Of a stretch of 64,000 nucleotides of DNA, positions 20,489 to 48,194 are shown in pieces. A model generated the notes under the pieces. It made no database searches, had not been told where the DNA came from, and saw nothing but the letters and a program-made list of their open reading frames with translations. How positions within the stretch are numbered: position 1 is the stretch's first letter; every line of letters starts with the position of its first letter. This DNA comes from a virus (lineage: Duplodnaviria > Caudoviricetes): the IMG/VR virus record IMGVR_UViG_3300021387_000661, positions 32,001 to 96,000 of that record; one strand, given 5' to 3'. The position numbers and the translations under genes were made by a program.

Positions 20489-20764
20489 TTATATACATAT
20501 TTGTATATTCTTTTTTGCAGTGATGATTTCATCATCATCTTTATAACAGGTGACTAATGATTCATCATCCAATTGACCAATCTCTGTTGCTGAAACCAAT
20601 ACCTTGTCACCTTTTTTTAAACCGTCAACAGGTTCAATGACTTCTGCCTCAACATAACCATTTTTTTTCATCTTTTTCTTGTCATGTTTGAGAAGGTCTG
20701 CATCAGCAGGGTTTTCAAGGAAAGTTTCATTAACAAATTCTTTGAAACTCTTTATCATTCCCAT
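20489..20764 (-). CDS. Small putative head-internal protein
   Basis: N-terminal IKSFKEFVNE, similar to the T4 capsid targeting sequence. Confidence 0.65.
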   Translation of the reverse strand: MGMIKSFKEFVNETFLENPADADLLKHDKKKMKKNGYVEAEVIEPVDGLKKGDKVLVSATEIGQLDDESLVTCYKDDDEIITAKKNIQICI

Positions 20765-31619: not shown

Positions 31620-31651
31620 TAAAAGAGAGGTTTTTATGACCTCTCTTTTTT
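31620..31651. terminator. Bidirectional terminator
   Basis: AAAAGAGAGGT...ACCTCTCTTTT. Confidence 0.8.
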
Positions 31652-32687
31652 ATTTCCTGTCTTTTACCAATCTCACACAGAGTTTACCATTAGTTGTATC
31701 TTGTGTTACACTATCATTTACATTATGATGATCATTCAATGGTGTGTGACAAGGTTTACCATCATTGAAAGTAAATATATTTGCAAATCTATTATTATTT
31801 GTATAAAGAGATGATGTCCAACAATAATAATAATCTTTATCTATGGGTTTATCACCAGCAGATGTATATATTAAACCTTTCTTGAAGAATACTAATTGAT
31901 GTGGAAATCCATCAAATACAAATCTATCATCATTTTCCCAGAATGAACCTTTTTTATAAATATCATCAAGTTCTGCAACTTCTTCAAGTGTTGGGAGTCT
32001 CCAACCACTGTTTTTAACAAGTTCAAATACTTCATCAAATGTAAAGTAACAGTCTCCATCTTTTAATGAAAGGTCATCATCTGCCCACAAAACAGATCCT
32101 CCCATATCAAGAGGTTTAAGAGATTTTATGTTTGTGAAATCATCTTCTTTCTTAACATCAGTTCCATTGCCTCTTCTCCTGATGTCATTCCAAACAGATT
32201 CAGAAACATAATTCTTGTCTTTTACAAGGAAAACAAAAAGTCTGTTTATCGACTTGTTGAAGTTTGTAACATCAAAAACATTTGAATTATTAAATCCATA
32301 TGCATATGCACTACTTGGGAATTTGGCATTGATTTCTTTTGTCCACATATGGAATCCATAACTTCCATTGGTCTTGAGTCTTAATTCATTTCCATCATAA
32401 AATTTAAGGTGCTTACATCCTTCATACCAGGCAATCCTGATATTCCAATGCAACTGGTTCACTTCATCAACAGTAGGAAGTCTCCAACCATTATTGTTAT
32501 AATCTTTTACATCATCAAAATGGAATTTCACCTCACCATCAATCTCAAGGTTGTCAATTGCCCAATAGATTGTTGTGTTTTCACCAAAGTCAACATAATC
32601 TGGATTGAAAGCATCCTCTTGCTTGATATCAGTACCTATACCCCTTCTTCTGATGTCACTCCAGACTGATTCACTTAATTTCTTCAT
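31650..32687 (-). CDS. Two-unit tagged protein with two Fib_succ_major/DUF1566-like (C-type-lectin-fold) domains
   Basis: Each half is tag + D(F/M)G...WA.D(N/D)L...GWRLPT..E...WT...(F/R)LVKD. Confidence 0.75.
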   Translation of the reverse strand: MKKLSESVWSDIRRRGIGTDIKQEDAFNPDYVDFGENTTIYWAIDNLEIDGEVKFHFDDVKDYNNNGWRLPTVDEVNQLHWNIRIAWYEGCKHLKFYDGNELRLKTNGSYGFHMWTKEINAKFPSSAYAYGFNNSNVFDVTNFNKSINRLFVFLVKDKNYVSESVWNDIRRRGNGTDVKKEDDFTNIKSLKPLDMGGSVLWADDDLSLKDGDCYFTFDEVFELVKNSGWRLPTLEEVAELDDIYKKGSFWENDDRFVFDGFPHQLVFFKKGLIYTSAGDKPIDKDYYYCWTSSLYTNNNRFANIFTFNDGKPCHTPLNDHHNVNDSVTQDTTNGKLCVRLVKDRK

Positions 32688-32689
32688 AG

Positions 32690-33475
32690 TTAATCTTTAA
32701 ATTTTATGAATGCTACACCTTCTGTACCACTTGGATTGTTTTCATAATCCAATTCAAATTCTTTCAAATGTACCCATCCAAGTTTTGTATATGTGTCTAT
32801 CAATTCTTTCCTTAAATCCTCATACCAGTTATCAAGCATAGGATATGTGATTATATGTATATCTTGAACCGTATCATAATCAACATCTTCTAATTCACAA
32901 GGAGGTATTGTTGGATTTCCATCATCATCATACCAAGTTCCATCATCTTCATAGAGTATTGCACCACCAACATCATAATCAGTACCAATCAAATCATATA
33001 TGGTATATTTTGCAAATTCAGACATATGATTGTCTTCAAAAATCTTCTTTGTGTATTTGACAAGAATATCCTGGATTTCAAGTTCAGAACTATACATCTG
33101 CTCAAATCTTCCATTTTTAATCAACTCATCAATATAATCATCCCTGTCTTTATCTATATAATCTCTCAATACATAGACATCATATTCATCTTCACCAATA
33201 TCCCATTTATCACAACCAAATACACCTGCTATTTCTGTATCACCCCAGATTATGGTTGGATTGTTTTTGGGTCTATTAAATGCAAAACACCTCCAGGGGT
33301 CAGAGTTTTCTTCTTCATAAACATCTCCAAGTCCCCAGAAATCTTTCATAAGTTGATATTTAACACCATCAATGACAAGGGTAATACCTTTGTCTTCCTG
33401 TTTTACATCATCGCCAAGACCTCTTCTTCTGATGTCACCCCATATAGATTCAGTTATGTTACTTAATTTTTTCAT
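32690..33475 (-). CDS. WxDIRRRG-tagged acidic protein
   Basis: Starts MKKLSNITESIWGDIRRRGLGDDVKQED. Confidence 0.8.
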   Translation of the reverse strand: MKKLSNITESIWGDIRRRGLGDDVKQEDKGITLVIDGVKYQLMKDFWGLGDVYEEENSDPWRCFAFNRPKNNPTIIWGDTEIAGVFGCDKWDIGEDEYDVYVLRDYIDKDRDDYIDELIKNGRFEQMYSSELEIQDILVKYTKKIFEDNHMSEFAKYTIYDLIGTDYDVGGAILYEDDGTWYDDDGNPTIPPCELEDVDYDTVQDIHIITYPMLDNWYEDLRKELIDTYTKLGWVHLKEFELDYENNPSGTEGVAFIKFKD

Positions 33476-33490
33476 ATACTTCTCAATTTT

Positions 33491-34123
33491 TCATATACTT
33501 ATTAATATTCCAAATGAGTCCACAATGTCATCAATTGGTTTGATTACCTTATAATCAAGTTCATTCTCTTTACAGAACTTCCAGAATCCACACTTCTCAA
33601 TGTCTGGGTCTTTTATCCTGTTCTCAATAAATGCCTGGATCATATCTTCCTTCTTTGCATTTCCCTTACCGGAGAGATTCTTCTTTCCCTCTGTTGGAGA
33701 AATGATAACCAAACAGTCTTCACCAAAATCCTCCAGTAATTTAATCCTTAAAAATGAGTTGAACAGTGCCAGGTCCAGGGTCGATGATGATATACTTCCA
33801 TAAGAGAAACCTTCAAGTCCTATAATGACCTCTTCATCACCAACCAATTCTACCAATCTGTTTGAGATTTTGTTTGCGATCATTTTCGCAGCCCTCATCT
33901 TTGTTCTCTGTTCTTCCCTGTAGTCCTTCTTATCAATCTCCCTGGTGTATGGGTTGAGTTCTATAATACCTGAAAGTTGTCTGTGATAGTTGAAAGTCTT
34001 GTTCTTACCAGTCTTCCAGTCCTTTCCATAATCATCAAAGAAAGAGATGAAAGAATATTCACCATCTTTATATATACACACTGCCGGCGAAATCAAACTA
34101 TAATCTATTCCTATTTTAATCAT
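33491..34123 (-). CDS. ruvC: RuvC-like Holliday junction resolvase
   Basis: IGIDYSL, LEGFSYG, KK..SGKGNAKKEDM, DDIVDS. Confidence 0.85.
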   Translation of the reverse strand: MIKIGIDYSLISPAVCIYKDGEYSFISFFDDYGKDWKTGKNKTFNYHRQLSGIIELNPYTREIDKKDYREEQRTKMRAAKMIANKISNRLVELVGDEEVIIGLEGFSYGSISSSTLDLALFNSFLRIKLLEDFGEDCLVIISPTEGKKNLSGKGNAKKEDMIQAFIENRIKDPDIEKCGFWKFCKENELDYKVIKPIDDIVDSFGILISI

Positions 34124-34620
34124 CTCAATGGTACTCCTTTTTCTCCATTAATTTCTGGTTCTTCCCTCAATACATACTCATTACTATATTTGTACACATA
34201 GAACTTCTTATTTTCAAGTCTGTATTTGATACTTCTTTTTTCCTGGATACTCATATCTGAATATTTTATAGGATTATAACTCTTGACACCATTGGCTTCC
34301 ATAGTATAGTTATCTGCACCATGTGATGTATTGTGGTAGATAGACAGATACCAGGCATCTTCATACTTGAAATGGATCCTTATTACATTTGGTTTCTCTA
34401 TATTCATCACTTTTTCAAGAGGCCATATGATGAGGTCATAAAGGAAATCATACAATCTCAATTCAGTTGATTTATACTTTGGTACAATATCAATAAGTAT
34501 GTTTCTCCACCAGTGTTCATAATCCTGTTCTGGTAAATCTTCCTGTTTGATGTCAGAACCTATACCTCTTTTTCTGATGTCATTCCAAACACTTTCAGTT
34601 ATACTACTCAGCTTCTTCAT
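34120..34620 (-). CDS. WxDIRKRG-tagged protein
   Basis: Starts MKKLSSITESVWNDIRKRGIGSDIKQED. Confidence 0.8.
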   Translation of the reverse strand: MKKLSSITESVWNDIRKRGIGSDIKQEDLPEQDYEHWWRNILIDIVPKYKSTELRLYDFLYDLIIWPLEKVMNIEKPNVIRIHFKYEDAWYLSIYHNTSHGADNYTMEANGVKSYNPIKYSDMSIQEKRSIKYRLENKKFYVYKYSNEYVLREEPEINGEKGVPLR

Positions 34621-35410
34621 CTACTGTAAACCAATTTTTAGTATATTCTTTATATTTCTTGAAGTTCTTCACTGTTGTTGCTGTGATAGGGATGCCAATG
34701 TTACAAGCATAATCATTGAATGACCAGACAATGAAAACAACATCATCTAATTCAGGGAATGTGTCAATCATACTTTCTTTATAATCAATTAAACTGGAGG
34801 CAGTACTTCCTTCGCCATATTTATCAGTATATTGTATTTCCCAATCATAAACATCTGATTCATCAATTAACTGTAAGATATAATCACTTTCATAATAAGA
34901 TATATTATCAAATTTTGTTTCAATAAAACCACCTTTATGTCTTGGTAGGTATGCAATGTCTCCACCAATCTCTTTTAGTTTGGTTGCAATACCTTTACAG
35001 ATTGATATATAGTCTTCTTCAGATACTCTGTCTTCAAAGTCATCCAGGTCAAAGTCTTTCATTTCATCATATGTCAAGAAATCTGCAATCAGGTCTGTAC
35101 CATGTCCTCCATCATATATAAGATATGTATAAGGTGCTTCAAATGCCCTGATGTTTTTCATTTCTTCTGGGGAATATGCCTTATCTCTGGTATTCAAGAT
35201 TGCAACCCTACATTCAACATAACTATCATTGTAATTAAGGATTTCTTTTATGAGTTCTTCATAATAAGAATCAGAAGCATTTTTCAGATAGATATCTACA
35301 TCAATACAAGTGTGAACTTTTTTACCATCCTCTTGTTTTACCTCAGTACCTATACCCCTTTTTCTGATGTCATTCCATACTGATTCTGTTATATTACTTA
35401 ATTTTTTCAT
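34604..35410 (-). CDS. WxDIRKRG-tagged acidic protein
   Basis: Starts MKKLSNITESVWNDIRKRGIGTEVKQED, late promoter 35432. Confidence 0.8.
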   Translation of the reverse strand: MKKLSNITESVWNDIRKRGIGTEVKQEDGKKVHTCIDVDIYLKNASDSYYEELIKEILNYNDSYVECRVAILNTRDKAYSPEEMKNIRAFEAPYTYLIYDGGHGTDLIADFLTYDEMKDFDLDDFEDRVSEEDYISICKGIATKLKEIGGDIAYLPRHKGGFIETKFDNISYYESDYILQLIDESDVYDWEIQYTDKYGEGSTASSLIDYKESMIDTFPELDDVVFIVWSFNDYACNIGIPITATTVKNFKKYKEYTKNWFTVDEEAE

Positions 35411-35494
35411 TTATTAATAAAATATATAAGATATTTATGGATTTTTGTTATATTTAGAATACTGAAAGAAGTTTAATTTTAAGTAGATAATAAT

Positions 35495-36304
35495 ATGTTT
35501 GAAAAAGTAAATCCTTCACATCCAGACAAGGTTGCTGATAGAATTGCAGGAGCATTGTTAGACCTTGCATATGCCAACCAGGAGAATCCAAAGGTTGCTG
35601 TTGAAGTACTCATTGGTCATGGTCTTTGTACAATCATTACAGAATCAAGTTTTGATTTCAATGAGGAAAATGTACTCCCCATTGTAAAGAGAATTGCCGG
35701 AGATGGTGTAGATCTTAAACTCATTGCTGTTCCACAGGATGAACATCTTGCACATAACCAGGATGATGAAATTCGCTGTGGCGATAATGGGATCTTCAAG
35801 GGTGAACCACTTGATGGAGAAGAAATGGAACTGAGTAAATTAGCACAGGAAATTTATCAGATTTATCCTACTGATGGTAAGTATATCCTGGATGAGAAAT
35901 CAAATACATTGATTGTTTGTCAAAGTAATGCTGATTCTGAAGAACTTAAAAATTGGTTGGAAGAAAAGTATCCTCATTATACAGTCATTGTGAATCCTCT
36001 TGGTGATTGGACTGGGGGACCAGATGTTGATTCTGGGGCAACCAACCGCAAGCTTGGTTCAGATATGGGTAGGTCTGTCACCGGTGGAGGACTTTGGGGG
36101 AAAGATGCATCAAAATGTGACTGGTCTGTAAATGTATATGCATTTCTTGAAGCACAACGAACTGGAAAACCTCAAAAGTTTTTTTGTGCAATTGGAGATA
36201 CAGAAATAAATGGTATACCATATTCTGAAATTGTAAAGATTGCCCTTGAATATGTTAAACAAATTGGTGGATTTGAATCTGCTGCATCTTGGGGACTCAT
36301 TTAA
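35495..36304 (+). CDS. metK: S-adenosylmethionine synthetase (short phage type)
   Basis: EKVNPSHPDKVADRI, GDNGIF, DSGATNRKL, GGGLWGKD. Confidence 0.93.
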   Translation: MFEKVNPSHPDKVADRIAGALLDLAYANQENPKVAVEVLIGHGLCTIITESSFDFNEENVLPIVKRIAGDGVDLKLIAVPQDEHLAHNQDDEIRCGDNGIFKGEPLDGEEMELSKLAQEIYQIYPTDGKYILDEKSNTLIVCQSNADSEELKNWLEEKYPHYTVIVNPLGDWTGGPDVDSGATNRKLGSDMGRSVTGGGLWGKDASKCDWSVNVYAFLEAQRTGKPQKFFCAIGDTEINGIPYSEIVKIALEYVKQIGGFESAASWGLI

Positions 36305-36320
36305 GAAGAAAGGAGAGAAC

Positions 36321-37520
36321 TTAAAAAATTCTCTCTTTTAATTTTTTAATATCATCACCTTTTAGAATTATGATATTATTTTTAATCATACATTGGTGTT
36401 TGGATTCAGCCAAACCATCTTTATACTCATTTCTATCATATGGGCAAATCATTTTATCTCCATCAAAGAATTGATCACCTTTTACTTCATATAATTTACC
36501 ATTAATACAAAAGTCAGGGTGATAATAATGTTTCATTTCTTCATATTCATATTCAAATGTAATATCTGGTTGATATTCACAAGGAATGTTATTTTCTTTA
36601 CAATATTGATAAATTTCTACTTCCCAAGATGAATCAAATGTTAAACCATCATAAAGAATCATCTTTTGTTTTTTGTGTGACCATTCTTTAGTTTGTGAAT
36701 AATTTATTACACCATATTTCTTCTTACAGGTTTCTTGCATTTTATCAAGACATTCTTGTGTTTGTGTATAACTTTCAACACCATATTTTTTTCTACAAGT
36801 TTCTTTTGCTTTTTGTCTGAATTCTTTGACTTGTAATGCATGTTCAACACCATATCTTTCTAACATCACAGATTTTTGTTTTTCTTTATATTCTGGTGTT
36901 TGTGTAAAATGTTCTACTCCATATTTTTCTAAACTTGTTTTTCTAACAGATTTTTTATATTCTTCTGATTGTTGATAATATTCTACTCCATATTTTTCAA
37001 CATTTGTTTGTTTTACTTTATTTCTACATTCAGATAAGGAAGAATAATTTTCTACGCCATATCTATCTTTTGATGTATTTTTATATTTTTGTCTGATTTG
37101 TATTGATTGTAAAGGGTGTTCAACACCATATTTTTCTAGACAAGTTGCTTTTATTTTTTCAAGACATTCTTTTGTTTGTGAATAATTTTCAACACCATAT
37201 CTATTAATACATGTTTCTTGCCTTTTTATTAAAGTGTTCTTATCTTTTATAGAACAATTTTTACAACAATGTAAGTTATATTCCTTACTAAATGATAAGA
37301 AAGTACATCTCTTTCCACAAACTGGACATAACCCAAGTTTTAATTCTGGGTCATCATTAAAGTAGTGAAATAGTTTTTGTGTGAATTTAAAATCAGATGG
37401 AAAATTCCAGGTAGATAAAATCTGATAGTGCTCAGGAAATTTCTTTTTGAATTGTGGTTCTTCTATATTACCATTTGGGTGTGTCTTAAGAATAGACAAC
37501 ACTTCTTCCTTTGTCATCAT
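36321..37520 (-). CDS. Free-standing putative homing endonuclease (Cys-rich finger, KYGVE repeats, PD-(D/E)XK)
   Basis: CPVC..C...CC..C, ~25-aa KYGV repeats, DSSWE...YHPDF...EVKG; inserted antisense between core genes. Confidence 0.8.
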   Translation of the reverse strand: MMTKEEVLSILKTHPNGNIEEPQFKKKFPEHYQILSTWNFPSDFKFTQKLFHYFNDDPELKLGLCPVCGKRCTFLSFSKEYNLHCCKNCSIKDKNTLIKRQETCINRYGVENYSQTKECLEKIKATCLEKYGVEHPLQSIQIRQKYKNTSKDRYGVENYSSLSECRNKVKQTNVEKYGVEYYQQSEEYKKSVRKTSLEKYGVEHFTQTPEYKEKQKSVMLERYGVEHALQVKEFRQKAKETCRKKYGVESYTQTQECLDKMQETCKKKYGVINYSQTKEWSHKKQKMILYDGLTFDSSWEVEIYQYCKENNIPCEYQPDITFEYEYEEMKHYYHPDFCINGKLYEVKGDQFFDGDKMICPYDRNEYKDGLAESKHQCMIKNNIIILKGDDIKKLKERIF

Positions 37521-37629
37521 AAATATAGTGATATTTTATATATTAGAGCAGGTGGGACAATTTACCAGATTTACCATCTGCTCTTTCTATATTTATGAAA
37601 ATTTATATTTGGTTTGTTATATTTAGTGT

Positions 37630-38691
37630 ATGGAAAATAGGAAAATTTGGTTAATTGCAGACACTCACTTTGGATATAAAGGAGATGATGAAGAATTTTT
37701 AAATGACTACATTGGTTACTTTGAAGATGTTGTCATACCATTGATGAAGAAAGAGGTCAAGGATGGGGATATATTGATCCATTGTGGAGATGTCTTTGAC
37801 AACCGTTCCAATATTGGATTGAACACCATATACAGAGTAATTAAGTTATTTGAGTCATTTTCAAATATCTTCAATGACATCAGGATAACGGTTGGTAACC
37901 ATGACATTCTCAAGAAATCAACCAATGACATCACATCCATCAATATGTTGAAACATATACCACATATTAAGATTTATTATACACCTGAAGTGGAAGTTAT
38001 TGATGGAAAGACCTGTCTTTTTAATCCCTGGGTGGAAGATCCAGCAAAAGAGAAGGAGATACTTGCAGGAGTAAATGTAAATTATGTGTTTGGTCATCTT
38101 GAAATTGGAGGGTCACAGATGACAAGTAGGACAGGTATGAAGATTGAATTCCAGGGTGGTGTAAAACCATCAGACTTTAAGGATGCCCAGGTTTATGCTG
38201 GTCATATCCATATCAAACAGGATAATAAGAATATTCATTATCTTGGGAATCCTTATCATAAAGATAGAGGTGATAGGGGTAATCCAAAGGGTATAACTAT
38301 TCTTGACTTGAAAACTGGAAAGACCAGGTTTGTTGAAAACATTATTTCTCCAAGATATTTAAAGGAAAACATTTATGACATTCTTAATCTGACTGTTGCA
38401 GACCTCAAGACAAGGTGGAACAATAACAGGATAGACCTTCATATGAAGAATACAGATTATACAAAGTGTAGTTTTGATGAATTGAAGACTGCCCTGGGAA
38501 ACTGTTATAGGAGTTTTGAGCCACATGGGGATGAGGTTGTTGCAGAATTGAATATTGTGAATGACATCAATTTTAATGATGCAAAAAGTAGTGATGATTA
38601 TATGGATGATTTTCTTCACAATCAGGATGTAGATGAGAATATGATGAATGCCATAAAAGAGAAACTAATTGAGTATAGAGACAGATTATGA
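37630..38691 (+). CDS. gp47: Recombination nuclease subunit (T4 gp47 / SbcD / Mre11 family)
   Basis: ADTHFG, GDVFD, GNHD, GH, GHIH metallophosphoesterase motifs. Confidence 0.9.
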   Translation: MENRKIWLIADTHFGYKGDDEEFLNDYIGYFEDVVIPLMKKEVKDGDILIHCGDVFDNRSNIGLNTIYRVIKLFESFSNIFNDIRITVGNHDILKKSTNDITSINMLKHIPHIKIYYTPEVEVIDGKTCLFNPWVEDPAKEKEILAGVNVNYVFGHLEIGGSQMTSRTGMKIEFQGGVKPSDFKDAQVYAGHIHIKQDNKNIHYLGNPYHKDRGDRGNPKGITILDLKTGKTRFVENIISPRYLKENIYDILNLTVADLKTRWNNNRIDLHMKNTDYTKCSFDELKTALGNCYRSFEPHGDEVVAELNIVNDINFNDAKSSDDYMDDFLHNQDVDENMMNAIKEKLIEYRDRL

Positions 38692-38954
38692 TAAAATTTC
38701 AAGCAGTAAATAATGTGGTTATATTGGTGAAGGATAAAGGAGAACCATCACCAATTATATTACCAAATCAGCAACCAAAGAATATGTATGAAATCCCAGA
38801 ACCATATACAGGTGTGATAGATAGTGTGGGGATAGACAATGAATGGAAGAAAGGAGACCATATTGCTTTCTGTGATATGGGTGGTGTTTATATGAAAGTA
38901 GATGATATTGAATATGTGGTCATTACTCCAGAAATGATAATTGGTAAATTGTAG
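38688..38954 (+). CDS. groES: GroES-like co-chaperonin
   Basis: IILP loop, GVIDSVG, KKGDHI, EYVVI..EMIIGKL. Confidence 0.75.
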   Translation: MIKFQAVNNVVILVKDKGEPSPIILPNQQPKNMYEIPEPYTGVIDSVGIDNEWKKGDHIAFCDMGGVYMKVDDIEYVVITPEMIIGKL

Positions 38955-38956
38955 TT

Positions 38957-39100
38957 ATGGAAGAAATTGTTTGGAACATAAGATTGGGAAAATTCAACAT
39001 CCGTTGGAAAAAGTATTATTATCCACCTTTCATTCAGAAAGATTTTTGTAAAGAATACAAGTATTTCAGTATTGGTAAACTTACATTTGTTATTATGTAA
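38957..39100 (+). CDS. Small hypothetical protein (47 aa)
   Basis: MEEIVWNIRLGKF... fills the operon gap; below ORF-track cutoff. Confidence 0.45.
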   Translation: MEEIVWNIRLGKFNIRWKKYYYPPFIQKDFCKEYKYFSIGKLTFVIM

Positions 39101-39117
39101 TTGTAAATTATGTAGAT

Positions 39118-39984
39118 ATGGATTTTGATGATATTTTTAATAATTCATTTGAGAAAAAGATAGAAGATAAGAACTTGGTGAACTTCAAGGTAAATGAATG
39201 TAGGAGACTTATTCTTGAGAAGTTTGGAGACATTAAGTTTATTGAGGAAGGTCATCAGTATTTTATTGGGGAGGAAGAATACATTCCTGTTAGTAACATC
39301 ATTAAAGAATATGAACCCGAAGTTGACTGGGATCAGAAAGCAGAAGATTATGCCAGAAAGTGGGGAAAAAAAAAGGAGGATGTACAGAAGGAGTGGAAAC
39401 TCAATAATCTGAAATCAACTATTTCCGGGACTAGGACACACTCTTTTGGTGAGAGTTATACCAATCTGTTGTGTGGTCATCCTGAACTCATCTGTGAGCA
39501 GAATAAACCACAGTATATTGAGGAATACAACACAATGGTTTCCACCTATCCAAAGGAGGATGCAGTGAAGAAGTTTTATGATGAATTGGAGACCAATTTA
39601 CATCCTATTGGTGCAGAGTTTAAACTTTCTTCAGAATACATAAAAGAATCCAGATCCATCTGTGGTACTTGTGACCTTTTGTTTTATGACAGTGAGAAAG
39701 ATGCTTATGTGATTGGTGACTGGAAGACAAACAAGTCATTGATAAAGGAATTTTCCAGGACTAATGGAATTCATATGACAGGGTGTATGAGTAAGTTTGT
39801 TGATGAACCTCTTTCACATTATACACTTCAATTCAATATTTATCAGAGAATGCTTGAATCTGTTGGATTGAAGATAATTGACAGGATACTGATATGGTTG
39901 AAGGATGATGGAACATATGAAAGGATAAATATTGAGAAGATTCCAGATAATGTTGTAGATAAGATTTTGAAAGGTGAGGATTAA
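39118..39984 (+). CDS. PD-(D/E)XK exonuclease (RecB/Cas4-like family)
   Basis: GTRTH, CGTCDLLF, IGDWKTN, HYTLQFNIY. Confidence 0.85.
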   Translation: MDFDDIFNNSFEKKIEDKNLVNFKVNECRRLILEKFGDIKFIEEGHQYFIGEEEYIPVSNIIKEYEPEVDWDQKAEDYARKWGKKKEDVQKEWKLNNLKSTISGTRTHSFGESYTNLLCGHPELICEQNKPQYIEEYNTMVSTYPKEDAVKKFYDELETNLHPIGAEFKLSSEYIKESRSICGTCDLLFYDSEKDAYVIGDWKTNKSLIKEFSRTNGIHMTGCMSKFVDEPLSHYTLQFNIYQRMLESVGLKIIDRILIWLKDDGTYERINIEKIPDNVVDKILKGED

Positions 39985-39999
39985 TTCCCCACCTTTTCT

Positions 40000-40007
40000 C
40001 ATAAATA
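40000..40007 (+). promoter_or_regulatory. gp55-type late promoter CATAAATA (representative of about 20 copies)
   Basis: Also + 7116, 8395, 42804, 47309, 48205 (TATAAATA), 48761, 60334 and - 2632, 3167, 10013, 10295, 19678, 22370, 24102, 25529, 29897, 35432, 37590, 53031, 55790. T4 late consensus is TATAAATA. Confidence 0.85.
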
Positions 40008-40012
40008 ATTGT

Positions 40013-42769
40013 ATGAGTACAACCAATGAATCAATATGGAATGACATCAGGAGAAGAGGTAATGGTTCTGATGTGAAGAAAGAAGATGATGTGAATCTTC
40101 TAGATATAGATGGACTCTATGATTATATCAAATCCAAATATGAGAAATATGTATTTGATTTAGATAAGGACACATTTGGTATATTAAATAAAAGGAATAT
40201 TGTTGTAGATATAATATCCAATGTGAGTCTGTTTACATCATATGATAAAAGTGGTAAATTGGATCACATTCTTTTATCTTGGACAAAAGTAAAGATAGGA
40301 ATGCCATTCTTTGATAAACTTTCAGAAAGGTTTAATGTACAATCACCAAATGTGTGTAGAAGAAGGATTACTGAAAAGGATGGTACCTGTACAAACCAGA
40401 CATATATAGATGTTATTGATTTCTTTTTGAAAAATATGGACAATATGTTAGTTAATGAATCAATATGGAATGACATTAGAAGAAGAGGTAATGGTGATGG
40501 CGTCAAGCAGGAAGAATTTACAGAAGAATTTATAGATAAAGTAAAATCGGATTTAATTTGTTTTACTATGTCAGTTGTAAATTATATAGAGAATTATGAA
40601 CTGACATTTGATGGTTTTTACAAGTATTTGGAAGAAATTGAGAATCCAGATGAAGTCAAAAAAATCATTTATTATGTAAAAACTCATAAAGATGAATGTG
40701 ATAAACTTTTAGAAAAAGACATCAAATTTGAAAATAAATTACTAGATGAAAAGATTAATGTCTATTTATTGAGATTTGTTGACAATATTGTATATGATGA
40801 AAAGTATCATAATACATTGTCAGATATAAAAAAGTTTGCATCTGAAATTTTTAAAGGACATAAAAGTTCATATGATTTCCATATAAACAAAAAACTGGTT
40901 TTTAAGGATAAGTCTGAATTGTTTAATGACTATATTGAAGATAAATGGGAAGACGGTTCTCTTAAACAAAAGATTGATGATTTGATTAAAAATGAAAATG
41001 ATGAAATATCCAAATATGGATTTGTAAAAGAACCAGGAAAAACCATATCTGAAACAGTTAATGATTGGTGGTATTCATTGGATGAAGACAAAAGAAATGA
41101 TTTGGGATGGGATGAATTTGGAGAAGATGCAGAAGGAGAATACTATTCAGATCACAATCCTGATTATAATGAATATACTGGTGAAGATTTTGAAGCAGAT
41201 GAGTGGTGGGATGATGCATATGGTATAAGAAGGGTTAAAATCTATTGTAGTGAACATTCAAAAACAAATGAGTCAGTTTGGGGTGACATCAGGAAACAAG
41301 GTCTTGGAGATACCTTAAAGAAAGAAGATGATCCATTTGTAGATAGAGATATAGATTCTTTATCCAAGTATGAGTTCTGTGATTATTTGAATTTTCATTA
41401 TGAACCACTTATGGGAAGGAGTATTCACACAAATGAACATACAAGAGAAGTGACAATACCTATATACATCCATCAAGGATATGCACATATGTATGCAACA
41501 TTTAATGATGATTCAAAACTTGTAGATATAAGTCTTCCTCTTACACAAAAAAATCCTCCAAGATTATATAATAGGATGTGCAAGAAATTTAATGTTATCC
41601 ACACAAGGCCACACTGGTCATATATTAAACCAATTGATGGTGATGAATTGACCAATACATTTTGTCTTGAAGTGATTGATTTTATTCTTGAGAATGTTAA
41701 TCATCCTTTACTGAAAAAGATTGTCTTACACAAGGTGAAAAAATTAAATGAATCAGTTTGGGGTGACATCAGAAAAAGAGGTAATGGTACTGATGTAAAG
41801 AAAGAAGATGAGATGACACAAGATGATTTGGAAGCACTTAATGATTTTATATTTGGATTTGCAACAAGAGTAGTATGGGATGGAGTGAGGGATTCTTTGA
41901 CAAATTTCTTAAAATATATTGATGAAAATCCTGAAGCACTTGACTGTGACATTGATAGGGTAAAGAAGTATGTTGAAGATAATTGGCATAAAAGTATATG
42001 TGATGATGTTGAAGCAGCAATAGAACAGGAAGATAAGGAAAAAGAAGAAGGTATGAATGAATCCATTTGGAATGACATCAGAAGAAGAGGTAATGGTACT
42101 GATGTAAGGAAAGAAGATGATATGACTTCTGATGATTATAGGAATTTGAAGGTAATATTGAAGATGTTTGGTCGTGAGGTCAGATTCTTTGGTAATCATA
42201 AAAACCAGAAATTCTTTCCAGTAAATGCCAAGAAATATGAAATTACTCTTGAAGACTGTTTGTATTTCATTGATGTACTTGTTGACGGTAAATTTACGGG
42301 TGCTGATTTTTCTAAACTGAAAAGATATATTGAAGTAAATTGGGAACGAGACCCTATGATTAAGAACATTATACAATGGACTGTTGATGGTAAAAATTCA
42401 AAAGAAATTGACCAAGAAATCAGGAATGCCTCAAAAAGTGATGAGTTTTGGGATTTGAATGAATGTGATGGTGTCCCTGGTGGATTAACACCTGCTGATG
42501 TAGGTGGAATGGGATCTGCATATTTTCCTGGACCAAATGGAGAACCTGGTTCCGGAGACCTTCCATTGCCAACTGGAATAGTTTATAAACAAGTTGCACC
42601 TTTTGATACATTTATCAAAATGAGAAGACCAAAAAAGAATAAAAAGAAAAAGTTCAGAAAGGAAGATGAACTATGTGTTCATAGTGAAAATCCACCAATA
42701 TATAGTCATGTTGATGATTTTAGAGATTATGTGGATAGGACATATAATAATATTGATAAAAGGAAATAA
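40013..42769 (+). CDS. 918-aa putative polyprotein with five WxDIR(R/K)xG tags
   Basis: Probable start ATG 40013 (MSTTNESIWND), just after late promoter 40000-40007. Tags at 40025, 40454, 41267, 41747 and 42056. Confidence 0.85.
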   Translation: MSTTNESIWNDIRRRGNGSDVKKEDDVNLLDIDGLYDYIKSKYEKYVFDLDKDTFGILNKRNIVVDIISNVSLFTSYDKSGKLDHILLSWTKVKIGMPFFDKLSERFNVQSPNVCRRRITEKDGTCTNQTYIDVIDFFLKNMDNMLVNESIWNDIRRRGNGDGVKQEEFTEEFIDKVKSDLICFTMSVVNYIENYELTFDGFYKYLEEIENPDEVKKIIYYVKTHKDECDKLLEKDIKFENKLLDEKINVYLLRFVDNIVYDEKYHNTLSDIKKFASEIFKGHKSSYDFHINKKLVFKDKSELFNDYIEDKWEDGSLKQKIDDLIKNENDEISKYGFVKEPGKTISETVNDWWYSLDEDKRNDLGWDEFGEDAEGEYYSDHNPDYNEYTGEDFEADEWWDDAYGIRRVKIYCSEHSKTNESVWGDIRKQGLGDTLKKEDDPFVDRDIDSLSKYEFCDYLNFHYEPLMGRSIHTNEHTREVTIPIYIHQGYAHMYATFNDDSKLVDISLPLTQKNPPRLYNRMCKKFNVIHTRPHWSYIKPIDGDELTNTFCLEVIDFILENVNHPLLKKIVLHKVKKLNESVWGDIRKRGNGTDVKKEDEMTQDDLEALNDFIFGFATRVVWDGVRDSLTNFLKYIDENPEALDCDIDRVKKYVEDNWHKSICDDVEAAIEQEDKEKEEGMNESIWNDIRRRGNGTDVRKEDDMTSDDYRNLKVILKMFGREVRFFGNHKNQKFFPVNAKKYEITLEDCLYFIDVLVDGKFTGADFSKLKRYIEVNWERDPMIKNIIQWTVDGKNSKEIDQEIRNASKSDEFWDLNECDGVPGGLTPADVGGMGSAYFPGPNGEPGSGDLPLPTGIVYKQVAPFDTFIKMRRPKKNKKKKFRKEDELCVHSENPPIYSHVDDFRDYVDRTYNNIDKRK
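40025..42121 (+). repeat. Five dispersed ~66-bp repeats encoding NES(I/V)W(N/G)DIR(R/K)xG.G...K(K/Q)E(D/E)
   Basis: Copies at 40025-40090, 40454-40519, 41267-41332, 41747-41812, 42056-42121. Confidence 0.92.
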
Positions 42770-44833: not shown

Positions 44834-45309
44834 ATCTTTATCCAACAAGTGATATTTCTTTCAGACATGAATCCAGTAGTGGAAATACTGGTTATAATAT
44901 GATAAATGAGACAGAACCTGATGAGGGTACAACATATATTCAGCAGGAATTGAGTAGCAATAATACAACTGTTATATCACAGTTTAATTGTGCTGCTGCA
45001 ACGGAGGATCCATCAAGACCAACAGGTAAAATAAAGGTAAGGAGTGTAAAAGTTGAAACATATTGGGGTTCTGTTGGTCAAAATGTTAGGTCTGTTACAG
45101 GTACATTGACAACAAGTGTTGCATTTGGTGATGGGAGTTATACTGCTGCCAGTTCAACAGATACACGAAATTCAACTACTATAAGTTATACACTTACAAA
45201 TTCAACATTCAATAATTTATCCATTGTTGGGACAGTATTTGAAAATATTGATGCTCTTGAAGCAAAATTACAATTAAGTACATCTGGTAGATATACCTCA
45301 TCAAATTAA
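44818..45309 (+). CDS. Tail-fibre-region protein, N-terminal part (possibly split from the next ORF)
   Basis: Ends at TAA, in frame with the ATG six nucleotides later. Confidence 0.55.
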   Translation: MAYTINLYPTSDISFRHESSSGNTGYNMINETEPDEGTTYIQQELSSNNTTVISQFNCAAATEDPSRPTGKIKVRSVKVETYWGSVGQNVRSVTGTLTTSVAFGDGSYTAASSTDTRNSTTISYTLTNSTFNNLSIVGTVFENIDALEAKLQLSTSGRYTSSN

Positions 45310-45315
45310 TACATT

Positions 45316-46242
45316 ATGGGTTGGAATACTGCTGTTGGTGGATTAAGAATATCCACATCACATATTGTTCTTGAATATGACTTGGTATTTGATTGTAAGG
45401 CTGAAATCATATCAGGTCATGGTATATCATCAGTGACACCTTCAACAAATCAGGAAGTAGTTGAGGGTGAGAGTTGTACATTTACTGCAACTCTTGAATC
45501 ATCTGAATGGGTATTTGTTGGATGGTATTCATCATCTGATTTTTCTGGTTCTCCGGAATCAACAAGTTTGTCATACACAAAGACAATTACGGAGAACACT
45601 ACATTATATCCAAAGGCAATACACAAGAACAATATACATATATATGGTAATACAGACAGATTCACATATGTATTATCAAGTACATCTGCTCTTGAAAATG
45701 CACAGGTTACACTGACAGTAACACCAACAAACAGTATATATCAGTTCAGTAGTATATATGAGGCTGATGTCAATGGTAACAAGACTGCTGTACATATATC
45801 CAATGACAATCCATATACATTCACAATGCCAGATAATGATGTGTATTTATATGTTGAGGTTGGTAAGAAAGTAAATGTGTATGTTAATTGTCAGAATTGT
45901 CAATTGAGTACAGGTACATCTCCTATAGAGAGTAGTGGTGGTAAAATGGAGACCATAACAATAACATATGATTCTGAATCTGCTGATTGGTCTGGTATAT
46001 ATTCGGACAGGAATTATACAAATAAAGTATCTGACACTACAACATATACTTTTATGGTTGGTGAAAGTGATGTTTATTTGTATGCAAAGGCAATATCAAA
46101 ACAACAGATATATGTGAAGGAGAATGGGGTTTGGGAAGCATATTCAAAAGTATATGTGAAGGAGAATGGTACCTGGGTTGAGAAAACAGATCCATCAGAG
46201 ATATTTGATATTATAAAGAAATATAAAAGAGTAACAGTATGA
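45316..46242 (+). CDS. InlB B-repeat-like structural/fibre protein
   Basis: Three repeats (FVGWYS...YT.TI....TLY), C-terminal YVKENG.W twice. Confidence 0.65.
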   Translation: MGWNTAVGGLRISTSHIVLEYDLVFDCKAEIISGHGISSVTPSTNQEVVEGESCTFTATLESSEWVFVGWYSSSDFSGSPESTSLSYTKTITENTTLYPKAIHKNNIHIYGNTDRFTYVLSSTSALENAQVTLTVTPTNSIYQFSSIYEADVNGNKTAVHISNDNPYTFTMPDNDVYLYVEVGKKVNVYVNCQNCQLSTGTSPIESSGGKMETITITYDSESADWSGIYSDRNYTNKVSDTTTYTFMVGESDVYLYAKAISKQQIYVKENGVWEAYSKVYVKENGTWVEKTDPSEIFDIIKKYKRVTV

Positions 46243-47306
46243 GAAGTAATGATACACAAGTAGGTCAGCTTGTCATCAATCTTGTAGAAACAAAAAGTCA
46301 GTTTGATGAAATAGCAAGTCAGGAAGGATTGAATGCAAATGAACTTTATCTTATATCCAATGATAATTCAGATCCATTGGTTAGGGTGAGTTATGCAAAT
46401 TCAAAAATCAGTTATACAACAGAAGGAGGTTCTACTGTTGATGTTATTAGTATATCCAATCTTAAATCTGAACTAGGTTTAACAAATGTTGCAACTGATG
46501 GTTCATATTCTTCATTGACTTCAAAACCACAAATTAATGGTGTTGAATTGACTGGAAACAAGACAACAAGTGATTTGGGTATATCATTGAATTATGCAAC
46601 AACACAGATAACAAATAAACCAAGTATTAATAGTGTTACTCTTACTGGTAATTTGACAACATCAGATTTGAATATCAGTTATGGTGATTTGAAAAATCTT
46701 CCTACAATTCCTACTGTATCAAGTACATATGTAACTGGTAATACAGGTGCTGCACTTACATCTGCCGGCGTTGACCAGGCACTTGAAAATTATGTACCAA
46801 AGACCAGGACTGTAAAGGGTGTTGGTGCTCTTGGTGGTGGTGGTGAATTAACAAGTAATAGGGAAATTACCCATAAAGATGCTCCAACAGGATTGTCAAC
46901 ATCGGCAGTAAAGATTGGAACAGATAGATATGGTCATGTTTGTCTTGGTGGTTCAATAACAGCAGAAGATGTAGGTGCAATTCCACTTTCATTATCATTA
47001 TCTGGAACTGCAACAAATATTGATGGTTCAAAGACAAATATTGTTGTATTTGGTCAGCAGTCTGAAACATTTGGTTTTTCTACAACACCTACATTGGGTA
47101 AGACCACCACAATACATTATGTAAATGAGACAGAGAATGCAATAAGCCTAACTATTCCTTACAACTTGGTAAACACCACATATTATAATGGTCAGAAATT
47201 GACAGCAAACAAAGTGGTGTCTATTCCAGTCAATACAAGTAAGAGATTTGATGTGTTGCTTGTACAGAATGGTTCAAATGTTTATGCAATGATAAATGAA
47301 TTATAA
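46239..47306 (+). CDS. Tail fibre protein
   Basis: KP(Q/S)IN(G/S)V.LTGN.TTSDL.I repeats, L.GGG.L...R.I.H, DRYGHV motifs. Confidence 0.7.
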   Translation: MRSNDTQVGQLVINLVETKSQFDEIASQEGLNANELYLISNDNSDPLVRVSYANSKISYTTEGGSTVDVISISNLKSELGLTNVATDGSYSSLTSKPQINGVELTGNKTTSDLGISLNYATTQITNKPSINSVTLTGNLTTSDLNISYGDLKNLPTIPTVSSTYVTGNTGAALTSAGVDQALENYVPKTRTVKGVGALGGGGELTSNREITHKDAPTGLSTSAVKIGTDRYGHVCLGGSITAEDVGAIPLSLSLSGTATNIDGSKTNIVVFGQQSETFGFSTTPTLGKTTTIHYVNETENAISLTIPYNLVNTTYYNGQKLTANKVVSIPVNTSKRFDVLLVQNGSNVYAMINEL

Positions 47307-47336
47307 CACATAAATATTGTATAAAAAGTATAGATT

Positions 47337-48194
47337 ATGAAGATATTTGGATTTGATGACTATCAGGTCTTGAATGAAAGTTTCAAGAGTGGTAAATTAA
47401 GAAATATTATCCAGCAGCATGGAATGCCAAAGTATGATTTGGACAGGAAGTTTCTTTATGACCTCCAGGATGATGATATTCTTGGTGTTATGGATTTTGA
47501 TGAGTGGTATGATTTTCACAGGGATAATAAGAATAGTTATCATATTGCCCTGGAAGATGGTAAGTATCTTGTACTTGGAAACATTGATACATTGAAGTAT
47601 TATGCTGATGATGAGGATTTCCAGGAAGAGTTTAAGAAAAGAAGGGATGAAAGACATCCTGGAAATGAACTCAATGATATTCCTTCATATGAAAGGGAAA
47701 AAGCCCTTGAAGATGAGACTACAAAACACTTCAGGGAGAAGAAGAATGAACTGGAACATAAGAGAAATCTTGAGACATTCAAGACCAATCTTGGTGACAA
47801 TCTTGGAAAACTTGCAGAGACTATAAGGGAAACTTTTGAATCAAATATAGAAGGCAAGATTTCAGACCTTGTTTTAGAATATAATGATAGTGTTTCTACA
47901 GAAATATCTGATGTCTTTGATGTTGAGTTTATGGGTATAACATATAATATTGATTATGATTATACCATCAATATTTCTGATGGATACAAAAAGTATGGTG
48001 CAACATATTATGATGTCACCATATCACCAAAGACAGCAAGAGTATATGATGATGAACTTGGTGATACATTTGATGTAACTGAACTCTTTGATGATCCAAG
48101 TGCTTTGCTGGCAGATTATGATATTGATGATGTGGAAGGAGAGATTTCTGACTACTATAAGTATTATGGTGTAAGCAGAGGAGATTTCTTTTAA
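47337..48194 (+). CDS. Putative head-internal acidic protein
   Basis: MKIFGFDDYQVLNE^S CTS-like start, late promoter 47309. Confidence 0.7.
   Translation: MKIFGFDDYQVLNESFKSGKLRNIIQQHGMPKYDLDRKFLYDLQDDDILGVMDFDEWYDFHRDNKNSYHIALEDGKYLVLGNIDTLKYYADDEDFQEEFKKRRDERHPGNELNDIPSYEREKALEDETTKHFREKKNELEHKRNLETFKTNLGDNLGKLAETIRETFESNIEGKISDLVLEYNDSVSTEISDVFDVEFMGITYNIDYDYTINISDGYKKYGATYYDVTISPKTARVYDDELGDTFDVTELFDDPSALLADYDIDDVEGEISDYYKYYGVSRGDFF

Follow-up and report, generated by a model that had tools for sequence, protein, structure and literature searches.

A conserved peptide tag on shuffled protein modules of a T4-related jumbo phage, possibly marking cargo of the phage head

In bacteriophage T4, IPI, IPII and IPIII, which are internal proteins, and the Alt protein carry a capsid-targeting sequence (CTS) that is removed by the prohead protease gp21 (PMC3012670, PMC8442874, PMC5694885). 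This sequence, MKTYQEFIAE (PMC8442874), sits on internal proteins that are hypervariable (PMC3012670). In phages phiKZ and SPN3US, processed inner-body or ejection proteins form families of paralogues whose sizes are plastic (PMC5694885, PMC10052503), and another point of comparison is provided by polyvalent proteins and effectors fused to MuF, which phages and conjugative elements encode (Iyer et al. 2017, PMC5512222). Here, these systems are compared with a set of genes found in a 64,000-nucleotide stretch of viral DNA (“the window”), which comprises bases 32001-96000 of a 344,746-bp IMG/VR record (94% complete, 34.7% G+C). The genes share a conserved 22-residue peptide, referred to below as the tag, that heads a variety of protein modules. 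The reading favored here, in which confidence is about evenly divided, is that the tagged genes encode head-internal cargo and represent an expanded, modular variant of the T4 CTS and internal-protein system.

A first-pass annotation of the DNA had placed ten copies of the tag in the window, and all ten are confirmed at those positions. Three minus-strand genes (34604-35410, 34120-34620 and 32690-33475) carry one copy each at their start, the gene at 31650-32687 carries one copy at its start and a second internally, and a plus-strand gene carries five. The annotation had proposed a profile search, and the tag is indeed found elsewhere in the genome and in metagenomic proteins. In the source record (G000; relatives are labeled G001, G002, G003, G006, G007 and G009) there are 27 copies in 16 open reading frames (ORFs), far above chance, and the close relative G003 has 41. 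In a search space of 1.84 billion representatives of public metagenomic proteins, clustered at the 50% identity level, a profile built from the 27 copies matched 353 protein clusters, with a maximum of seven copies per protein. The consensus and the site statistics given below are drawn from 410 tags in 149 of the matched representative proteins, the consensus being [ILVM]-x-E-S-[VI]-W-[SGAN]-D-[IMV]-x-x-[RKQ]-[SGA]-x-G-x-x-x-[RK]-K-E-D-[DE]-[VIL]. The invariant residues of the tag are S, W, D, I, R, G and E; across the lineage-specific versions described below, the peptide keeps E, S, W, D, G, [KR], E and D. Synonymous codons differ among the 27 copies, with five used for Ser (TCT, TCA, AGT, TCC and TCG), three for Val and three for Ile, and selection therefore acts at the level of the peptide rather than of the DNA.

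The view that what follows the tag is often unrelated from copy to copy is also borne out, as 12 of the 27 modules have no detectable similarity to any other. Among these singletons, one module is DUF285-like, one is a WYL_2 protein and several are acidic proteins. Two further modules are Lcl_C lectin-like, and the remaining 13 belong to one family of about 130 residues (“module A”), whose members share 25-32% identity. Tagged proteins of the relatives further carry DUF285 repeats and a GNAT domain, so that Lcl_C, DUF285, WYL_2 and GNAT are the only recognized domains among tagged proteins; GNAT and WYL_2 are cytoplasm-type domains. The tag, module A and the helical modules have no match in PHROGs or Pfam, and a search of the ESM Atlas gave no usable match. 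Both the 22-residue motif and module A deserve family definitions of their own.

No fewer than 12 unrelated types of cargo carry this same tag, and structure prediction suggests that it is a flexible short linear motif lying outside the fold of the cargo. In an AlphaFold2 (AF2) model of residues 1-171 of the five-tag polyprotein, module A (residues ~25-145) has a predicted local distance difference test score (pLDDT) above 90 while both flanking tags fall below 50, with merely a short helix across W-x-D-I-R. In the model of the 268-residue protein, tag residues 1-30 score 44-56 and the body about 63-93 per 10-residue block, mostly 76-93. The annotation had named the possibility that the motif is integral to a known folded domain; in view of the low pLDDT of the tag in these two cargo contexts, its being part of the cargo fold is rejected. 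Docking of the tag in cis onto module A is not supported either, both tags being unplaced in the AF2 model. In the 140-sequence alignment behind this model, which covers module A and the tags on either side, the invariant columns lie solely within the tags. Self-cleavage via an N-to-O acyl shift at the invariant Ser was considered but dropped, as the region to be cut is predicted to lack structure.

The sequence directly before the tag fits a site for a head-maturation protease. Position P1 is Glu in 405 of the 410 tags and P1' is Ser in 407, while P3 is I, V, L or M in 354 and T in 42; the most frequent context is [ILVM]-N-E|S, the bar marking the predicted cut. By its sequence, the source phage is a T4-related jumbo phage with the enzyme and capsid protein that such sites call to mind. 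PF03420 (Peptidase_S77, the gp21-type prohead protease) matches at 37.3 bits, above the cut-off, within a 653-residue ORF outside the window (G000 112238-114199), and the Gp23-type major capsid protein, 575 residues long, matches PF07068 at 101.6 bits. In the 653-residue ORF, the protease is followed by a scaffold-like region of about ten 14-residue repeats, each ending [YL]-[LIV]-A-E, and the arrangement suggests that protease and scaffold are fused, with sites for self-destruction built in. At the end of the protease domain stands ...K-R-V-N-E|S-Y-G..., which is invariant in the four genomes with different tag versions that were compared (G000, G001, G003 and G007). The capsid protein reads ...Q-S-L-N-E|S-A-L-G-Y... 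at its propeptide boundary; here L-N-E-S is invariant in 20 of 20 relatives, down to 49% identity, and its position, from an alignment to mature gp23, is compatible with the gp23 maturation site of T4. The [ILVM]-N-E|S context of the tag would be the same four-residue site as at these capsid and protease/scaffold boundaries. Outside tags, seven of 11 occurrences of [ILVM]-N-E-S fall at residues 5-25 of a protein, compared with 8.8% expected (p = 1e-5).

Two parts of the first-pass proposal fare differently here. That the tags are preceded by head-maturation sites agrees with the sequence context, which fits a gp21-type protease. That the tag is a basic label for binding DNA does not hold up, as its net charge is about zero, the modules are mostly acidic and the variable positions are acidic in several lineages; a DNA-binding role is unlikely because other lineages have D-I-Q-D-R-S or G-I-L-D-R-G in the corresponding stretch and because of the mostly acidic modules.

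Leaders before the first tag are short. Of the 149 representatives, 114 have a leader of 6, 9 or 11 residues (11 residues in 53), and 130 have one of up to 13 residues. The pattern M-x(0-8)-[FYW]-x-x-[FYW]-[ILVMT]-x-E, modeled on the T4 CTS, is found in 14 of 436 genes compared with 1.05 +/- 1.03 in shuffles, and four of the 14 are tagged proteins that start MIPDFKTYI.E|S (11 residues). Examples of such leaders are MVKTFKEFIKE|S, MIKKFEEFINE|S, MAYIKKFSEFIKE|S, MIKKFSEFTNE and MLKKFNEYIEE|G. The 9-residue MKKLS.ITE and the 6-residue leaders end in [ILV]-x-E without resembling the T4 CTS. Four tags that lack the upstream Glu start M-S-[VI]-W, so that removal of the initiator Met would yield an N terminus equal to that of cleaved tags. 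Small proteins with a CTS-like leader are encoded in the window at 20764(-), 25501(-), 29873(-), 48233(+) and 50733(+), and outside it at G000 141120, 178314(-), 198470(-) and 9957(-); judged by these leaders, they look like classical internal-protein candidates apart from the ES[VI]W tag.

The most elaborate of the tagged proteins in the window is a “beads on a string” polyprotein of 918 residues (40013-42769, plus strand; its true start is the ATG at 40013). Its five tags, at 40016-40111, 40445-40540, 41258-41353, 41738-41833 and 42047-42142, head in turn module A, a helical module, a second module A and two helical modules, the last of which ends in a C-terminal tail unit of about 100 residues (42464-42766, plus strand). 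The tail unit follows L-N-E|C and consists of a look-alike of the N-arm of the capsid protein and then a Lys-rich stretch. Its sequence VGGMGSAYFPG...GSGD corresponds to VGGMGAAYFPG...GSGD just past the L-N-E|S of the capsid protein (BLASTP E 3e-7), and the unit is kept in 26 relatives, behind [ILV]-x-E. In the tag-less G006 (363 kb), it forms a stand-alone gene of 104 residues with the 10-residue leader MEDIEKNINE|CDGVPGG. In the two genomes compared, the tetrapeptide that follows GGMG in the tail changes in step with its counterpart in the capsid protein (AAYF/SAYF here, DMFF/DIML in G006). On this sequence evidence, the tail unit would be the strongest indirect tie of any tagged protein to the capsid. 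A complex prediction for the mature capsid protein with the tail unit gave an ipSAE of 0.00, which counts neither for nor against binding.

The remaining tagged genes of the window form an apparent operon on the minus strand, running from 35410 to 31650. The first, at 34604-35410, encodes a 268-residue protein with the 9-residue leader MKKLSNITE, a tag (35303-35398 with its flanks) and an acidic cargo. It overlaps by 17 nt with the next gene (34120-34620), which encodes a 166-residue protein with the leader MKKLSSITE, a tag at 34513-34608 and a cargo without detectable kin among the other modules. An untagged RuvC-like resolvase gene follows (33491-34123, minus strand; PHROG 159, E 1.9e-14), which is context in the operon and not cargo. 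The 261-residue protein encoded at 32690-33475 has the leader MKKLSNITE, a tag at 33368-33463 and an acidic cargo with an isoelectric point of 4.2, and the 345-residue protein (31650-32687) consists of two units of tag plus Lcl_C lectin-like module, with tags at 32589-32684 and 32118-32213. PF07603 (Lcl_C / DUF1566) matches the latter protein in two stretches at 37.4 bits, compared with a gathering cut-off of 34.9. No Pfam or PHROG match was found for the 261-, 166- or 268-residue cargos. The 268-residue protein has more than 160 metagenomic homologues, and a fold search with its cargo found no match (best Foldseek E 0.14, best VIA Z 5.2). Between the two tagged transcription units lies a 269-residue ORF (35495-36304, plus strand) with a PF00438 match (E 5e-10) that covers the N-terminal domain of S-adenosylmethionine synthetase only.

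For module A, the best structural match is the C-terminal “double-wing” of T4 MotA, with VIA Z scores of 7.8 and 7.4 and a root-mean-square deviation of 2.8-2.9 Å over 97-98 residues; Foldseek gives probabilities of 0.87 for T4 MotA in the PDB (1kaf) and 0.96 for MotA of Acinetobacter phage Acj61 in BFVD. The match is weak, at E 0.05-0.3, about 8% sequence identity and Z values under the caution line of 8 set by the tool, in the range of common arrangements, and the PsiB, RWD/UBC and type III secretion system chaperone folds score nearly as well. Moreover, MotA is a basic DNA binder, whereas the modules here are mostly acidic to near-neutral, with isoelectric points of about 4-7 (8.3 for the module that bears the tail unit).

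In the window, the octamer CATAAATA, which resembles a late promoter, occurs 23 times compared with 7.3 +/- 2.8 expected. Of its 85 copies in the whole genome, 52 stand no more than 40 nt 5' of an ATG (ORFs of at least 60 residues), compared with 6-27% for control 8-mers, and the genes so marked include those for the protease, the portal-position ORF and the baseplate hub. The annotation had put all tagged genes of the window behind such boxes. This is so for gene 35410, where a copy at 35432-35439 (minus strand) heads the operon, and for the polyprotein, where a copy at 40000-40007 (plus strand) ends 5 nt 5' of the ATG at 40013; genes 34620, 33475 and 32687 lie downstream in the same apparent operon as 35410 and have no box of their own. 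Across the genome, five tagged genes or transcription units have the box upstream (G000 10004, 67410, 72013, 184445 and 198527). The spacing to the ATG is 4-5 nt in the window at 40000-40012 and at G000 198527, 9957, 19997, 171036, 258376, 263343 and 342574. If CATAAATA is a T4-like late promoter, mRNAs from the sites so spaced would be leaderless or nearly so.

Comparison among relatives reveals how the modules are rearranged and how the tag itself has diverged. In relatives, the 268-residue cargo is found on either side of a lectin module as well as behind module A, DUF285 or an untagged domain, and the junctions are always at the tag. Tags are 73% identical within one protein and 48% between proteins, and while orthologous bodies of the 268-residue cargo are 78% identical, the tags on them are only 45% identical. 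Each lineage has its own dialect, D-I-R-K-R-G-N-G in G000, D-I-H-K-R-S-N-G in the 41 tags of G003, D-M-M-R-R-G-S-G in G001 and G-I-L-D-R-G-x-G in G002 and G007, and dialects differ even between phages whose capsid proteins are 91-92% identical. This uniformity within a genome, coupled with fast divergence between genomes, argues for either a single co-evolving partner or gene conversion. Across the dialects, the protease domain and capsid residues 1-110 are essentially invariant, while the scaffold region, capsid residues ~180-270 and the portal termini vary. Another variable gene of the head region is a 975-residue ORF just 5' of the portal-position ORF (G000 107480-110407, outside the window), which keeps only about 26% identity among phages that share more than 90% identity in their portal-position ORF and capsid protein; this hypervariable protein of the head module is a candidate for an exposed or receptor-type component.

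Among more distant relatives, two tag profiles (A1 and A3) found no ES[VI]W tag in G006, G009 (413 kb), LR756500.1 or Lak-C1, and megablast and tblastn searches of the INPHARED phages with the tag region and the 268-residue protein gave no match. In G006, 11 proteins (L066-L085, e.g. G006 44877-47745, 123132 and 222601) begin MG[IV]L[LK]NLT.EYFG...R.ED, a shorter cousin tag found at N termini only; nine of the 11 are DUF285 repeat proteins and two are unrelated. Also among the conserved genes are DUF7487-type genes with repeated Y-G-V-E-x-x-x-Q motifs (window 36321-37520, minus strand; G000 116741-118483; L002 4432-5397, minus strand), one of them directly 3' of the capsid-protein gene, with a counterpart in G006 (60% identity) and none in G001, G003 or G007. 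They look like mobile, homing-endonuclease-like insertions.

In the favored interpretation of the tagged genes as head-internal cargo, the proteins would be expressed late, either one module at a time or strung into polyproteins, with at most five modules here and seven in relatives. They would enter the prohead core, in some cases aided by the T4-CTS-like leader MIPDFKTYI.E and in the case of the polyprotein by its C-terminal mimic of the capsid N-arm. The gp21-type protease would then cut after Glu in [ILVM]-x-E|S, freeing each module with the common N terminus S-[VI]-W-x-D-[IM]-..-G-x-G-...-[KR]-K-E-D. The retained tag is proposed to bind one phage-encoded partner, and it is because the two co-evolve that lineages would have acquired dialects. 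A likely role of the tag would be to hold or organize the modules in the head, to govern their exit with the DNA, or both. A more far-reaching and decidedly doubtful version treats the tag as a lineage-private address code, in which each lineage keeps all of its 27-41 modules fitted to a single head receptor that evolves fast, any module gaining the tag through recombination at the joint that encodes it is loaded, freed and delivered, and cargo with another dialect, from a co-infecting relative, is excluded. This would amount to plug-and-play loading of effectors with built-in incompatibility, which to our knowledge has not been described for T4 or any giant phage.

Several observations weigh against the proposal of head-internal cargo. 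The protease domain and capsid residues 1-110, being invariant, cannot read the variable positions of the tag; these are all that the comparison of four dialect genomes excludes, and it did not find the partner. Nor would the tag be needed for cleavage, since sites in the capsid protein, scaffold and tail unit are predicted to be cut without it. The majority of tagged proteins have the MKKLS.ITE or 6-residue leader, unlike the T4 CTS, and the operon in the window holds the untagged RuvC-like gene and sits among replication genes. The Lcl_C lectin-like and DUF285 leucine-rich-repeat cargos look like adhesins, which would be more fitting for the virion surface. Further, the phage group is uncultured. 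By capsid-protein identity, the nearest deposited genome, that of an uncultured 462-kb phage and the closest record in INPHARED, reaches only 44%, and the Prevotella Lak megaphages 33-34%.

The adhesin-like cargo keeps alive a reading in which the tag is a peptide that docks onto the capsid or a fiber for surface display, with binding modules anchored outside the virion and uncut polyproteins attached at multiple sites. T4 Hoc has such a short, conserved capsid-binding end, the most variable stretch of the capsid protein across dialect genomes is residues ~180-270, and concerted dialects would suit any single docking site. Display on the surface nevertheless appears improbable. It leaves unexplained the near-invariant Glu at -1 and hydrophobic residue at -3, the match to maturation sites in the capsid protein and the protease, the tags that start M-S-[VI]-W and the CTS-like leaders. 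The GNAT and WYL_2 cargos are of cytoplasmic type, and the polyprotein tail has a Lys-rich stretch and copies the capsid N-arm, an element of the inner surface in HK97-fold capsids. If this reading were true, a new modular decoration system would be at hand instead. Recruitment to a structure other than the head, in or on the tail or spike, or to an intracellular hub formed by a phage or host factor without a role in the virion, is quite improbable. N-terminal packing domains do load cargo into extracellular contractile injection systems, the tag, a linear motif, is disordered, three tagged genes come immediately 3' of a gp5-like baseplate hub gene in the same orientation, and another tagged cluster comes after a DnaJ-like gene. 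Yet the tagged genes are scattered over five loci, the lumen of a myophage tail is filled by the tape-measure protein, and the protease-site context, the CTS-like leaders and the capsid-like tail unit point to the head.

A different type of explanation sees in the tag chiefly a conserved linker between domains, or a recombination joint that acts at the nucleotide level and allows shuffling, with no role in addressing. In line with this, modules in relatives are shuffled exactly at tags, and codon usage within the W-x-D-I segment of this genome is biased: the Asp codon is GAC in 25 of 27 copies compared with 23% genome-wide (p = 4e-14; e.g. window 40037-40051), and the Ile codon is ATC in 16 of 27, also compared with 23%, which yields near-identical cores of 11-14 nt. 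Such position-specific bias suggests short-tract gene conversion or a joint at the nucleotide level. Other synonymous sites vary freely, however, the bias is absent in the relatives G001 and G003, the invariant columns of the module alignment are confined to tags, and the peptide is conserved across dialects far above what would be expected of a passive linker, so that this explanation is very unlikely.

The annotation had known of no comparable system, but the T4 CTS on hypervariable internal proteins is a direct precedent (PMC3012670, PMC8442874). In both systems, small proteins that are otherwise hypervariable (putatively late ones here) share a short conserved peptide at the N terminus, the cleavage site, predicted here, follows Glu and has a hydrophobic P3, and an S77 protease occurs with a Gp23-type capsid protein. 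A leader of about ten residues that ends (L/I)-x-E directly before the predicted mature protein is present here as well, and CTS-like leaders, including MIPDFKTYI.E on tagged proteins, occur in this genome. The systems differ in that the conserved 22 residues here lie past the predicted cut and would be kept by the mature protein. The tag also recurs internally, in polyproteins of up to seven modules and in 27-41 modules per genome, has lineage dialects and shows no sequence similarity to the T4 CTS.

The resemblance to phiKZ and SPN3US lies in expanded paralogous head proteins with propeptides, a gp21-related protease and x-x-E sites. Propeptides in those phages are longer than 100 residues and are removed, the cleavage motif is A/S/G-x-E, and there is neither a common retained tag nor a tag-delimited polyprotein; searches of Pfam and PHROGs found no similarity to their head proteins. 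Polyvalent proteins likewise have many independent modules per polypeptide in shuffled architectures, and have been proposed to be loaded into the head, perhaps cut up, and passed on together with the DNA. They are defined, however, by conflict domains (Ard, methylases, ADP-ribosyltransferases, peptidases) and by MuF or portal fusions, and a repeated delimiting tag is not described for them. No Ard, methylase, ADP-ribosyltransferase, peptidase or MuF domain and no portal fusion was detected in the tagged proteins, and the polyprotein has no Pfam or PHROG match.

What is new here, then, is the retained tag, the tag-delimited polyproteins, the number of modules and the dialects. A signal kept on the mature protein would, if the proposal of head-internal cargo is correct, be a candidate for organization or ejection and not for entry alone. 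The uniformity of the tag within a genome and its divergence between genomes offer a computational handle for finding the receptor, and a tag so short and portable could be turned into a means of loading foreign proteins, as happened with the T4 CTS. Again if true, the T4 paradigm of CTS-targeted, protease-trimmed internal proteins would extend to jumbo phages of gut and rumen that form a large, uncultured group with a distant relationship to the Prevotella Lak megaphages, and in these phages about 5% of coding capacity would be given to a shuffled library of tagged modules.

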